Shown here one piece after another: positions 15,252 through 55,705 of a stretch of 64,000 nt of DNA. A program made the position numbers and the translations under genes. Numbering within the stretch: position 1 is the first letter of the stretch; the number at the start of each line of letters is the position of its first letter. The notes under the pieces were generated by a model, which saw only the letters and a list, made by a program, of their open reading frames with translations, was not told where the DNA came from and searched no databases. The stretch is from Octopus vulgaris (lineage: Eukaryota), in contig OX597815.1 in the NCBI GenBank assembly GCA_951406725.2, positions 55,738,001-55,802,000 of the forward strand, read 5' to 3'.

Positions 15252-15688
15252 ATCTTATAATTAAGGGCTAAAGAAGGTTATTCTAAAGACAATACACTGA
15301 TTTATCCACTTATAATCCACTTGTTACAGGAAAAATTGAACTGAAAGCGGGCAACTAACATGTGAGTATCTTATTTATATTCCCTCGTAAGCTCTACTGA
15401 AGAAGAATGTATCCTTTATAGGGATTAATTCCGAAATTGGTTCAATATAGAGATAACGAAATTTAAATTTTCTAAAGGTTAGTTGCCCGCTTTCAGTTCA
15501 ATTTTTCCTGTAACAAGTGGATTATAAGTGGATAAATCAATGTATTGGCTTTAGAATAACCTTCTTTAGCCCTTAATTATAAGATGTTTATACTTCAACC
15601 GTAAAGGTTTTTTTAATATACTGCCACGCTTTTTGATGGAATCCTTTTCTGTAGAGAAAGAGACTTCATCCTATATTGTTAGTAGTAT
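15252..15688 (+). mobile_element. Short Penelope-like/retrozyme-like insertion with 108-bp inverted arms and an internal hammerhead
   Basis: 15252-15359 is the reverse complement of 15478-15585; ~100-bp 3' extension; (TA)n on both sides. Confidence 0.75.
15392..15452 (+). ncRNA. Type I hammerhead ribozyme motif
   Basis: ctcta-CTGAAGA-a-gaat[..atcc..ggat..]attc-c-GAAA-ttg-gtt-caa-TA-tagag: stem I ctcta/tagag, stem III ttg/caa, AUA triplet; A.C mismatch at the base of stem II. Confidence 0.75.
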
Positions 15689-16699
15689 GTATATATATAT
15701 ATATATATTTGTGTGTGGTGTGTGTAGGTGTGTGTGTGTTTCTGTGTTTGTCCCACATAACAACCGATGTTCGTTTGTTTATGTCCTCCTAACTTAGAGG
15801 TTTGCCAAAAGAAGCCGATAGAATAAGTACCAAGTTTTACAAAAATAAATACTGGCGTCTACTCGTTCGAATAAAACTCTTCAAAGTAGTGTCTCAGTAT
15901 AGCTGCAGTCTAATGACGGAAACAAATAAAAGAGAAAAAATGCCGGCATTCAACTGAACAAATAACGTTCACTGAGATGGTGAAAGTAAGGCTCTGAAGG
16001 AATATAATTCATGTGTGACATTGTATATGCGGGAAGTGGACATATAAGGGATCCACGACTTAAGAAATCCAAAGAGAAGCTAAATTTATACAAGCCAACA
16101 CAAATGACAGGTGTAAAACAAGTATACGCTAAAAATGAATTTCAGACATAATGAAGATAGCACATTTATCTGTTACCTTCCACCTTCTGTGAGAGGTTCA
16201 AGGCATTCATAAAGTGCCATTCACATTCGAATATTTTAGGATTATAGAAATATTAAAAAGAGCAAGAGAAAGAAATAGAGATAAGTGTAAAGAAAGAGAA
16301 AAAAAAGAAATCAGCAAGAAATAGAAAGAGGAAAATATCGTTGATTATTAAAGTTCTCGGGATACTATATTCATTCATAAACTTGTATTTAAAAATGCTA
16401 ATGCTTTGAAACGCTCACTTTGCAACACAATGCTAAAACGAAAAAAATGAAGAGGATGAAAGAGAACAAAATAGAGCAAAAAGTGAAAGAAAAGGTTTAC
16501 AGGAAGTAGCTGCGATGAATAATTACAGAAAGAAAGAAAAACAATAATAGAGAGAACGAAAGAGAACGCGTAGGAATGTAAGAAATAAGCCATAGAAATA
16601 AACACCTTGAAATTAAAAATTTGGAGGAAGTGAATATTTTACTCTGTGCAAACCAGTGCAGAGAATATCAATTTTAAGTCAAATAGTCATTAATTTGGA

Positions 16700-17330
16700 A
16701 TGGCATCAATAACTTTTCTGGTCAGTTATGATGACAAACTAAGATTATAATCCGAAATTATCGTGCCTGTAAGCAGGCACAACGGAAGTAAGAATGGACA
16801 GAGGGATCTATCAAAATGATTGGTTTTTCTTTTGCGAAATATGAATGGCCATGAAACAGATTTAGGAAAGTTATTATTTTAGTTTTTAGAGAATTAGCTT
16901 TAAAAATAACTGTTGATAGTGCTCTTACGACAGTTAACGTTTTAGAAATAACCTCAGACTCCAACTTATAACAAACCTAAAAAGAAGTTAATATTAATCA
17001 GGTTTAATTACCCACCTAACGACCAATCTAATTTACTTCCCAAAGTAGATGAATATCATCTTTAATTTCAAACGAAATCTCTTTTTCAAAGGATTTACAT
17101 TTCTACCATAAATTTCTTAACCATAGTGAATAAGACACATATCTGGGCTTTTATCTTCCAGAGACGTAGTAGCAGAACTAGAAAAATTCTGTAGGATCCT
17201 CTCATTTTCAGTTGCCTGAATAAATATAGCCAATTTTGTCCCAACTTATTATACTTGGTAACATATTATAAAAATCTTTAGTAGTAATTCTGTCAAATTG
17301 TTCTACTCTTGTTCTACTAATACCAGACGT
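16700..17330 (+). mobile_element. Highly decayed Penelope-like RT/linker remnant
   Basis: Broken motifs resembling RLINP, KPN..NYPP, RTRKI..PPFS..NI and NSVKLFYSC in PLE order. Confidence 0.4.
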
Positions 17331-54248: not shown

Positions 54249-55517
54249 CGAGGGACGTTCAATAAGTAATGCCCCTGACCCACTTCCCATAGCAGTAGAG
54301 CAACGAAACTTGGCACAGTTATTAGTCTTTTTCTACATAGGAACCACCCAGAGTTACGCATTTCTCCCATCGTTTGATGCAGCTCTGAAGACCGTTTTTG
54401 TAGAAGACCCCAGCTTGGTCCCCCAACCACGACGTGACTTCAGAAATCAAGGCTGCATCATCTGGGAAACGCTTTCCTTTCAAAAACAACTTCATGGCTA
54501 GGAAGAGGTGAAAATCAGAGGGTGCAGGTCAGGAGATGGGGGATGAGTTCATAGCCGCACGCCTGGGCTTCTGATCTGGCGACACGCGAGTTGTGGATCG
54601 GAGCGTTGTCCTGCAGGAGGAGGATGCCTTTGCTGATCTTGATTTTGATAGCTTCTCTTAATTTCCTCAAAAGTGAAGCATAATAGACTCCTGTAATTGT
54701 GGCACCCTTTTCCAAGAAATCTGTCATCACTACTCCGTCCTGGTCCCAGAAGACTGTGAGCATGACCTTGCCAGCGGAGGGCTGCACCCTTGCCTTCTTT
54801 GGAGGAGGTGAGTCACGGTGCTTCCACTGCATTGACTGGGCTTTGGTCTCTGGATCATAGTGATGGACCCAGGTTTCATCCTGTGTAATCAGTCCTTTGA
54901 AAAATTTTGACTCATCTTCTTGGCACATCTTCAAATTCATCCTCGCGCTATCGACGCGTTCTTGCTTCTGGAAAGGTGTGAGCAGCCTGGGAATCCATCT
55001 GGCAGACACCTTTTGCATATGCAAATGGTCATGAATGATAGTTTCCACAGACCCGGTACTAATCTTGACCTCATGGGCTATTTGGCGAATAGTTATGCGT
55101 CGATCTTCCAAAATGGCAGCCTCAGCTTGACGGACAGATGCCTCATCAATGGCAGAAGGGGGCGACCAGATCTGGGAGCTGTTTCCACAAAGTTCCGACC
55201 ATGTTTGAATTCACGATGCCAGCGTTTTACAAGGTCATATGATGGGGCATCATCACCATAAGTTACTTTTATTTCATCAAAAGTCTCCCGTGGTGTGCGT
55301 CCTTTCAAATACAAAAACCGCATCACTGCTCGACACTCAACAGGCTCCGTTTCACACTTGACTCAGTTCAAACACATGTAAATCAGAAACCACAATTAGT
55401 TCAGAGCTGTAATTTGCCACTTAATCTATAGAGATATAGGTAATTGCACATGCAAAATTTCAGCTAGATCAAACAACTGCAAGTGGGTCAGAGGCATTAC
55501 TTATTGAACGCCCCTCG
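54249..55517 (-). mobile_element. Full-length mariner transposon (1269 bp) with a frameshifted transposase
   Basis: TIRs cgagggacgttcaataagtaatgcccctgacccactt / aagtgggtcagaggcattacttattgaacgcccctcg; TA flanks; APRSGRP, WIPRLL, TQDETWVHHYDP, LQDNAPIH, SPDL.PSDFHLF, RWEKCV..GGSYVEKD*. Confidence 0.95.
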
Positions 55518-55534
55518 TATATATATATATATAT

Positions 55535-55705
55535 AAAGTTAATCCAAACAAGAAAACAAAAACACAACAACGCAAGGATGTGGAACAAATAAAGTATTAT
55601 TGGACGCTCAGGAAAGAAGGGAAGAAGGAGGGTTTGACGTTTCGAGCGGAGCTCTTCGTCGGAAACATAGGAGAAAGAAAGTCCCGAGACGGGAGGACAA
55701 AGGAA
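55535..55705 (-). mobile_element. Short Penelope-like 3' fragment in (TA)n carrying a hammerhead
   Basis: ~170-bp non-coding block between TA tracts; hammerhead at 55632-55666. Confidence 0.65.
55632..55666 (-). ncRNA. Minimal type I hammerhead ribozyme motif, variant core
   Basis: Minus strand gttt-CCGACGA-a-gagc-tcc-gctc-GAAA-cg-TC-aaac: perfect stems I and II, palindromic ACGU stem III, GUC triplet. Confidence 0.75.

Follow-up and report, generated by a model that had tools for sequence, protein, structure and literature searches.

Short inserts in TA-type microsatellites of Octopus vulgaris as probable truncated ends of Penelope-like elements

A 64,000-nucleotide stretch of Octopus vulgaris DNA (to be referred to as the window) contains several short inserts in simple repeats. 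An original prediction took them for a retrozyme-like system of non-coding mini-elements, carrying hammerhead ribozymes and mobilized by Penelope-like elements (PLEs) with a preference for TA repeats. The question is whether the locus holds such a system or the usual remains of PLE insertion. Our analysis suggests that the inserts are probably ordinary insertion products of several PLE families, in the form of short 5′-truncated ends inserted into TA-type microsatellites and in most cases accompanied by a head-to-head mirror arm. No new element class is needed for them.

The inserts will be referred to as E6, E15, E42, E53 and E55. The components of the last four are:

15252–15359, minus strand: inverted partial arm of E15, after (TA)12
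15360–15688, plus strand: main copy of E15, extending 102 nt past the arm end and terminating at TATG(TA)9
42456–42558, minus strand: inverted partial arm of E42, after (GT)35; 100/103 identical
42559–42936, plus strand: main copy of E42, extending 146 nt past the arm end and terminating at a TATG array
53519–53891, minus strand: main copy of E53, extending about 126 nt past the arm end and terminating at (TATTA)10; no hammerhead core
53714–53810, minus strand: 21-bp tandem expansion within the main copy of E53
53893–54022, plus strand: inverted partial arm of E53, terminating at (TA)5
55535–55705, minus strand: stump E55, without inverted arm, flanked by (TA)9 on both sides

Head-to-head inverted arms are present in E6, E15, E42 and E53, and absent from E55. 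In the alignments, the arms of E15 (15252–15359 and 15479–15586) have 2 mismatches over about 108 nt, those of E42 (42456–42558 and 42688–42790) are identical at 100 of 103 positions, and those of E6 (6629–6845 and 7328–7545) at 204 of 218; the arms of E53 (53827–53645 and 53893–54022) are more diverged. Two pairs are at 97–98% identity and one at 94%. The longer arm exceeds the other by a "tail" of 102 nt in E15, 146 nt in E42, about 126 nt in E53 and 35 nt in E6, and element and flank share T or TA at the end point of each arm. With a coding PLE remnant (see below), the head-to-head layout recurs five times in the window. Each of the four inserts had been described as starting with an inverted partial copy. 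The arms exist in all four, but in 53519–54022 it is the right end that holds the partial arm, with the main copy on the minus strand, and 6630–7545 is only part of a structure covering 5820–7545.

The inserts are unrelated in sequence, as had been claimed: the scores of 21 pairs among seven segments are at shuffle level, the exceptions being the arm pair of the 53.5-kb insert and, marginally, two pyrimidine-rich pairs (46 against a shuffle maximum of 44, and 36 against 33). Their location in TA/TG-type tracts also holds, every insert being in a microsatellite. A (TA)4+ tract is found within 10 nt of 7 of the 10 insert ends (background, 2.3% of positions) and a perfect short repeat within 10 nt of 8 of the 10 (background, 6.4%); the inserts had been picked beforehand for their location in such tracts. 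The end at 42936 fails both tests, yet adjoins the TATG array beginning at 42937. The flanking repeats make target-site duplications unreadable. SINE-like repeats and a mariner also adjoin TA tracts in this region.

The described lack of open reading frames is correct for four inserts, where no stop-free frame exceeds 57 codons, but not for 5820–7545, which has a frame of 238 codons of low complexity and with no PLE similarity. A short frame in E53 resembling an endonuclease C-terminus was rejected, as it receives no support from an endonuclease profile. A protein search with the translation of E55 and the adjacent stub (see below) finds no match, and scanning for E55 patterns among metagenome, viral and prokaryote sequences, where octopus DNA is not expected, gives 0 matches.

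Hammerheads had been read in E15, E42, E55 and the PLE remnant. The corresponding motifs are:

42629–42734, plus strand: type I hammerhead of E42, with a CUGAUGU core (A9U); its stem II domain measures 77 nt, and cleavage is predicted after 42729
55666–55632, minus strand: minimal hammerhead in E55, with core CCGACGA (U4C)
15392–15452, plus strand: motif like a type I hammerhead but damaged, with CUGAAGA and GAAA kept and stem I shifted by 5 nt
33386–33430, minus strand: decayed minimal hammerhead at the 3′ end of the coding PLE; stem II and GAAA kept

A strict scan of the 64 kb for type I hammerheads finds two loci, those of E42 and E55, compared to a mean of 0.37 in 30 shuffles, one of which had 2. 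Both are within inserts, which cover about 5% of the window, and both satisfy CUGANGA, GAAA, the UH site and stems I and II except for one core base each. Two relaxed scans give 3 matches, against shuffle means of 2.27 and 0.7, and 39 stem-plus-GAAAC half-cores are present in the window. The fold z-scores of the tested motifs span only −0.7 to −2.2.

The constrained hammerhead fold of E42 has an energy of −25.5 kcal/mol, compared to −25.7 kcal/mol for the minimum. The Rfam Hammerhead_1 model, which had been proposed as a check, gives partial agreement. It recognizes E42 at 42628–42735 with a score of 22.4 bits, short of the gathering threshold of 34 (E value 0.75 over the window and 0.0056 locally), and misses the 55.6-kb motif. 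The fold of the latter has a z-score of −1.95, with equal stability in 9 of 200 shuffles. The motif at 15392–15452 (z −1.15) is missed by three hammerhead scans and by Rfam, and that at 33386–33430 (z −0.69) has a broken CUGANGA box and stem I. Judging from sequence and predicted folding, a recognizable hammerhead fold appears to be kept by two inserts, E42 and E55. The reading in E15 is upheld only as a damaged motif, and that in the remnant only as a decayed one.

There is no convincing hammerhead in 6630–7545 (E6) or 53519–54022 (E53). A candidate on the purine-rich strand of E6 (6759–6844) was rejected: its core has G8U, the other two copies carry one further change, and shuffles reach such a score. 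So was a hairpin plus GAAAC in E53 (53622, minus strand; z −2.23), which has no CUGANGA box and is comparable to the 39 half-cores. Rfam microRNA matches are repeat or hairpin artefacts, under their own gathering scores.

The coding PLE remnant has these parts:

33341–35521, no single strand: decayed coding PLE with head-to-head layout, from sequence and profile/protein matches
about 34201–33341, minus strand: GIY-YIG endonuclease and 3′ end, ending at (TTA)58
34472–35446, plus strand: RT of the decayed coding PLE

The RT is 80% identical to an Octopus sinensis protein, and tblastn across 34366–35446 gives an E value of 1e-45. The endonuclease has 106 GIY-YIG relatives; their profile, covering one clade only, has a strong match at 33.6–34.0 kb only and none at the inserts, and a protein search with the remnant endonuclease finds no match. 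Neptune-type PLEs are marked by a C-terminal GIY-YIG with a CCHH motif and a CX2-5CxxC linker. In the remnant, a CX5CxxC stretch that contains a stop codon is present upstream of the endonuclease, with conserved C/H residues read across frames. A CX2-5CxxC linker is found in 9 of the 26 relatives having enough upstream sequence. The hammerhead of the remnant is located about 160 nt beyond the endonuclease match. Within the window, a tie by sequence to RT or endonuclease is found for 33341–35521 only, and for no insert with this one-clade profile.

The predicted PLE origin with a TA-repeat preference is supported, but it matches what has been published for PLE insertions and does not amount to a new system. 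PLE insertions are known with an inverted 5′-truncated copy, a 30–40-bp tail and (TA)n bias, and non-autonomous PLEs exist (Craig et al. 2021, PMC8557442). The supplement to that paper lists Octopus Naiad and Hydra families with (TA)n preference, including Hydra-1_Obim with a hammerhead. The tail spans the sequence from one RT start site to the other (PMC11167929). For the inserts studied here, the PLE endonuclease would nick TA-rich DNA, and RT would begin at internal RNA sites, such that one arm exceeds the other by the tail. An early stop of synthesis would leave only the non-coding end with its hammerhead, which would later decay. E15, E42, E53 and E55 would most simply be truncated element ends, from a parent that may have been autonomous or not. 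The PLE label of E53 and E6 would come from their architecture only, because no hammerhead is present in either. Directly observed are the arms, the unequal arm ends, the microsatellite flanks, two hammerhead folds, and a decayed PLE of like layout with RT and GIY-YIG. On the other hand, both intact-looking hammerheads are one base off CUGANGA and are sub-threshold or missed in Rfam, and the tails of E15, E42 and E53 (102–146 nt) exceed the published 30–40 bp; these count against the PLE explanation, as do the architecture-only label of E53 and E6 and the lack of a profile match tying any insert to an endonuclease.

The structure at 5820–7545 (E6), with a further family member, is organized as follows:

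5801–5819, no strand: (TA)n flank, adjoining the tail
5820–5854, minus strand: 35-nt tail, equal to the first 35 nt of the unit; 33/35 identical to 6561–6595
5855–5874, no strand: (TA)10 spacer, separating the tail from the full unit
5875–6595, minus strand: full unit of about 720 nt, pyrimidine-rich on this strand, without credible coding; 628/692 aligned identities to 6843–7545 over the whole length
6596–6628, no strand: (TA)6(TG)n spacer, joining head-to-tail units
6629–6845, minus strand: 5′-truncated unit of 217 nt, 204/218 to 7328–7545, in the pLTR position before the full unit
6843–7545, plus strand: inverted full unit, with the same start base as the 6595 unit and 3 nt common to the opposite arm; ends at (TA)9, tail absent
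55730–55770, minus strand: stub from the 3′ end of another E6-family member, immediately upstream of E55

At this one locus, E6 units are joined head to tail through (TA)n, with a pLTR-like partial unit and a tail in addition. The two full units and the tail share a start base, which in two of the cases immediately follows (TA)n. The family is many-copy in public runs (14,093 matching contigs in X1 and 9,095 in X8, covered along the length), and is found in runs under four species labels. Copy number had been suggested as a test of the predicted families; the many copies are those of an element with no hammerhead, and the 40 best-supported majority changes (of 134) create none by eye. In two RNA runs, repeat ends left out, no discrete linear or circular E6 RNA is seen, the two directions are about equal, and no end-to-start joint is found among the 15 of 59 joints listed. 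E6 has no similarity to the 3′ end of the coding remnant, and a pattern scan of metagenomes, where octopus DNA is not expected, gives 0 matches. Since the head-to-tail junction recurs one unit length on, with no coding between, E6 is likely a non-autonomous unit of about 720 nt without a ribozyme, moved in trans.

A more specific model is doubtful, and we would call it unlikely. E6 may be an abundant ribozyme-free mini-PLE of octopuses, a non-coding monomer of about 740 nt with its own (TA)n spacer, copied from tandem or circular RNA. Both RT start sites would coincide with TA runs, one being the spacer and the other the TATATA located 35 nt inside the next unit, with priming by pairing with the nicked (TA)n target. 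If true, this would account for microsatellite targeting and the tail in one step, unlike the start without homology that has been reported for Poseidon, an anole element.

Alternatively, E6 could derive from an autonomous PLE without a hammerhead (Naiad-like), or from another retroposon, as its long non-coding 3′ end, with the tandem arising from repeated insertion into one TA tract, which we consider possible, if somewhat unlikely. In the Octopus Naiad consensi, the 3′ non-coding part amounts to about 1 kb, and the summed contig depth in X1 at 7310–7409 is about 20-fold that of most of the 5′ half of E6, as expected of 5′ truncation. Moreover, the minus full unit is more divergent (21/202 and 20/202) from the other two copies than these are mutually (14/217). 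However, the depth step is just 2–3-fold in raw RNA reads, and low depth to the left of about 6867 is uninformative on the 5′ end because the reference copy is without 13 nt near this position. The shared start base of the full units and the tail also argues against such an end, as do the lack of reads past the ends of the E6 stretch, the lack of a non-homologous upstream continuation among the 24 of 1,213 loose ends listed, and the lack of likeness by eye to the ends of Naiad_Obim and Naiad_Ovul.

It is quite unlikely that E15, E42 and E55 each represent the monomer of a retrozyme, a dedicated non-autonomous family with a hammerhead that propagates by way of circular RNA produced by self-cleavage. 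Their 5′ ends are without coding sequence, the monomer-type fold of E42 almost equals its minimum-energy structure, and dispersed retrozyme monomers related to pLTRs have been published (10.64898/2026.07.22.740005). In comparison, none of the three is in a tandem of hammerhead-bearing units, E55 is of the minimal type known from PLE ends (PMC4209133), and stumps of 170–380 nt could fit wholly within the non-coding end of an autonomous PLE, as the position of the remnant's hammerhead illustrates. The original prediction of multiple pLTR-only or non-autonomous ribozyme families is not demonstrated, the hammerhead inserts being single stumps that resemble 5′-truncated PLE ends, an alternative which the prediction itself had named. 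The insert whose structure speaks for non-autonomy, E6, has no convincing hammerhead. It is extremely improbable that unstable microsatellites or their repair produced the arms and folds by accident, through fold-back duplication of unique DNA, and that the hammerheads arose by chance. The relaxed-scan counts, the half-cores and the narrow range of z-scores would fit such accidents, but not the many copies of E6 under four species labels, one layout seen five times, once in a coding PLE, or two strict hammerheads inside so small a part of the window. LINE twin-priming inverts without duplicating, and was rejected since the arm is duplicated in these inserts.

With truncated PLE ends as the preferred reading, the result is chiefly a matter of annotation, as protein-based annotation misses PLE stumps. 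With five unrelated PLE-type ends in 64 kb, such stumps would seem to make up a real share of octopus repeats. E6 would serve as a compact natural substrate for the cis needs of a PLE enzyme without a ribozyme, and makes it possible to test whether TA-pairing takes place at the priming site, a question not yet settled for the PLE mechanism.

As in EN+ PLE insertions (PMC8557442; Arkhipova et al. 2013, PMC3846280), the inserts have a head-to-head partial inverted copy, a tail on one arm, partial tandems, (TA)n targets and strong 5′ truncation; they differ in having no ORF and in three tails of 102–146 nt instead of 30–40. There is no sequence match to the published Octopus Naiad and Hydra consensi as far as compared, and exact motifs of six features are absent from the PMC8557442 supplement (exact matches only, which line breaks could mask).

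In metazoan PLEs, minimal hammerheads are mostly found as single copies, "probably related to truncated PLEs", and some lie on opposite strands at a distance of 100–700 bp (Cervera and De la Pena 2014, PMC4209133). E55 is similar to them in its short stem I, extra base before stem II, palindromic stem III and single dispersed copy, and differs by U4C. E42 differs by A9U and the 77-nt stem II domain, and the E15 and 33.4-kb motifs are broken.

Non-LTR retrozymes (Cervera and de la Pena 2020, PMC7229834; Li et al. 2026, 10.64898/2026.07.22.740005) are likewise non-coding, with a type I hammerhead and a proposed PLE dependence, and dispersed monomers exist. By their sequences, none of the inserts is a retrozyme as defined by tandem units with a hammerhead in each: the sole tandem unit here, E6 (about 720 nt), is without one, and no circular RNA is seen (E6 only, two RNA runs). 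E6 resembles MRC1 of Chlamydomonas, a non-autonomous PLE (PMC8557442), in having no credible ORF, a pLTR-like partial copy, head-to-tail units and no canonical hammerhead, and differs from it in its animal host and in the (TA)n spacer inside the tandem junction.

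The inserts in the window are likely Penelope-like element (PLE) insertions that follow a published pattern. In those at 15252-15688 (E15), 42456-42936 (E42) and 53519-54022 (E53), a main copy is joined head-to-head to an inverted partial arm. The arm is shorter than the end of the main copy by 102 nt in E15, 146 nt in E42 and about 126 nt in E53, and this stretch is referred to as the tail. The arm ends fall where T or TA is common to the element and the flank. The original prediction placed the arm of E53 at its start; the orientation is in fact reversed: the arm is at the right, and the main copy runs on the minus strand. 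No arm accompanies E55 (55535-55705), which is a 171-nt stump. The inserts show no sequence relatedness to one another (21 pairs compared). A (TA)4+ tract lies within 10 nt of 7 of the 10 insert ends (background, 2.3%), a figure that reflects inserts pre-selected for TA tracts, and other repeats of the window adjoin TA tracts too.

E6, the most distinctive insert, is likely a hammerhead-less, non-autonomous unit of the PLE type. The insert originally placed at 6630-7545 is real, but this extent is too small, as the structure reaches 5820-7545.

Units of the E6 family in the window
6845-6629, minus strand: partial unit of 217 nt, first in minus-strand reading order
between 6629 and 6595, after the partial unit in minus-strand reading order: microsatellite spacer
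6595-5875, minus strand: full unit, followed by (TA)10
5854-5820, minus strand: tail, the opening 35 nt of another unit, followed by (TA)n
6843-7545, plus strand: inverted full unit, with a 3-nt overlap at the joint, terminating at (TA)9
55730-55770: 3′ stub of 41 nt

The three unit starts of E6, in the two full units and the 35-nt tail, are an identical base. Successive head-to-tail junctions lie about 740 nt apart, PLE coding sequence is absent between them, and a stop-free frame of 238 codons is of low complexity. The copies mismatch at 14/217, 21/202 and 20/202 positions. The locus is therefore old, and either the template units were already unlike or the arms were homogenised afterwards.

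Part of 5790-7560 is present in 20 of the 24 public sequencing runs listed (four species labels, 11 studies), and half or more of its words in one of those listed. Four runs were aligned to 6835-7562: contig runs X1 and X8, and RNA runs X23 and X24 (about 6% read). The contigs aligned number 14,093 (X1) and 9,095 (X8), are mostly 90-99% alike and cover 28 of 30 bins. The E6 family is therefore many-copy, although summed contig depth does not equal copy number. Over about 7310-7409, depth is much raised in the contigs but only 2-3-fold in the raw RNA reads. The RNA reads (1,282 in X23 and 1,228 in X24) run about equally in the two directions, in libraries that may be unstranded, and 72-73% of them continue into unlike sequence. 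There is a single weak pile of ends, at 7531 (8 molecules). No end-to-start joint is found among the 15 of 59 joints listed for the RNA runs, where repeat ends were skipped and a circle could escape. No non-homologous upstream continuation is found among the 24 of 1,213 loose ends listed, where a 13-nt reference gap near 6867 masks the 5′ end. The RNA reads are as expected if many diverged copies undergo passenger transcription, and a discrete RNA is not indicated.

Hammerheads were sought with a strict descriptor tolerating one core mismatch, with 30 locally shuffled windows as the control. The strict scan of the 64 kb finds two loci, compared to a shuffle mean of 0.37 (1 of 30 shuffles reached 2), and relaxed descriptors give 3 vs 2.27 and 3 vs 0.7.

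Strict hammerhead matches
42629-42734, in E42: 5-bp stem I, core CUGAUGU, 77-nt stem II domain and short stem III
55666-55632, in E55: minimal hammerhead with U4C in the standard core numbering

Four hammerheads had been proposed. Those of E42 and E55 stand as strict matches with one core change each, and such changes are expected to impair cleavage. In the E15 motif the core letters are kept but stem I is shifted by 5 nt, while the core of the motif at 33386-33430 is broken. No convincing motif is present in E6 or E53. The constrained fold of the E42 hammerhead lies within 0.2 kcal/mol of the minimum (z -1.45); its Rfam score of 22.4 bits is below the threshold of 34. The E55 fold has a z of -1.95, and this motif has no Rfam match.

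A decayed PLE at 33341-35521 has the insert-type layout, but with coding sequence.

Coding domains of the PLE remnant
within 33341-35521, minus strand: GIY-YIG domain (Pfam E 0.01; 106 relatives; Atlas 0.92)
within 33341-35521, plus strand: reverse transcriptase (RT; tblastn E 1e-45)

The RT remnant at 34472-34777 has 80% identity to an Octopus sinensis protein, which points to an octopus host, and 34045-34201 recurs inverted at 35355-35521. A 280-nt palindrome (82%) at 34196-34474 is located where the two arms meet. The remnant contains a CX5CxxC stretch, which suggests a Neptune-type element. With a profile built from the relatives of the remnant, no endonuclease pieces were found in the inserts. 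The next-best match to the PLE endonuclease C-terminus profile, at 43636-43797 (plus strand), is weak (8.8 bits, E 0.029) and may be chance.

The window has a GC content of 36% and is rich in microsatellites and SINE-like repeats. A metazoan SRP (7SL) RNA match (14814-15104, plus strand; 78.4 bits, gathering score 70), a gene or pseudogene with a degraded 3′ end, lies 150 nt upstream of E15. Immediately left of the TA tract of E15, a SINE-like repeat end is mirrored about (TA)6 in a small palindrome (15190-15228). A mariner-type DNA transposon (54249-55517) adjoins E55 and sits between TA tracts. Its terminal inverted repeats are 37 bp long (35/37), and part of a transposase survives (PF01359, E 5e-24). 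At 60007-60483, two SINE-like halves (99% over 153 nt) stand face to face across (TA)41. The imperfect palindrome of ~640 nt at 44339-44983 (81% over 325 columns), with TTAGGG-type repeats in either arm, is a MITE-like or foldback element. A minus-strand fragment with a non-LTR RT-like motif (about 32100-33120), which may be R4/Dong-like, adjoins (TTC)n(TTA)58, the tract in which the coding PLE also terminates. Decayed LTR-retrotransposon pol-like frames (37329-40073, plus strand), presumably gypsy, contain an 84-bp internal duplication (38035 and 38650).

The arms, tails, flanks and folds, together with the E6 tandem and copy abundance, are the observed part of the mechanism, and we infer the other steps. 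The endonuclease would nick TA-rich DNA, reverse transcription would begin at internal RNA sites and terminate early, and the arms would arise via self-priming or template switching. At E6, both putative RT start sites are TA runs. The idea of a mini-PLE primed by base-pairing with the nicked (TA)n target stems from this one locus, and we consider it rather unlikely. In an anole element, PMC11167929 ties the tail to two RT start sites and reports that insertion in vitro did not require hammerhead cleavage. By analogy, dispensable cleavage would fit the decay or absence of hammerheads in the window inserts.

The observations behind the original prediction are largely real, with the hammerhead count, the extent of E6 and the orientation of E53 corrected. 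Its PLE origin is likely right, but corresponds to a pattern already published: PMC8557442 covers inverted copies with a tail, a bias to (TA)n and PLEs that are non-autonomous, gives Octopus Naiad and Hydra families a (TA)n preference, and includes Hydra-1_Obim with a hammerhead. Its ribozyme families are unproven, and the inserts fall outside the definition of retrozymes as pLTR-derived (pseudo-LTR) hammerhead tandems, as worded in PMC7229834 and 10.64898/2026.07.22.740005. Supplements of the latter might list related families, though its sample comprises 31 vertebrates, 3 insects and a single coral. PMC4209133 ascribes single minimal hammerheads, present in thousands, to truncated PLEs, and PMC3846280 describes solo pLTRs that function in trans. 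The accessible portion of PMC13282606 reports that 31 PLE families have been active recently in O. vulgaris, with ribozymes unmentioned there, and its repeat library may already include the insert families of the window. No publication on these particular families was found in the literature searched. Compared to these systems, the insertion pattern is known, and only the particular members are new.
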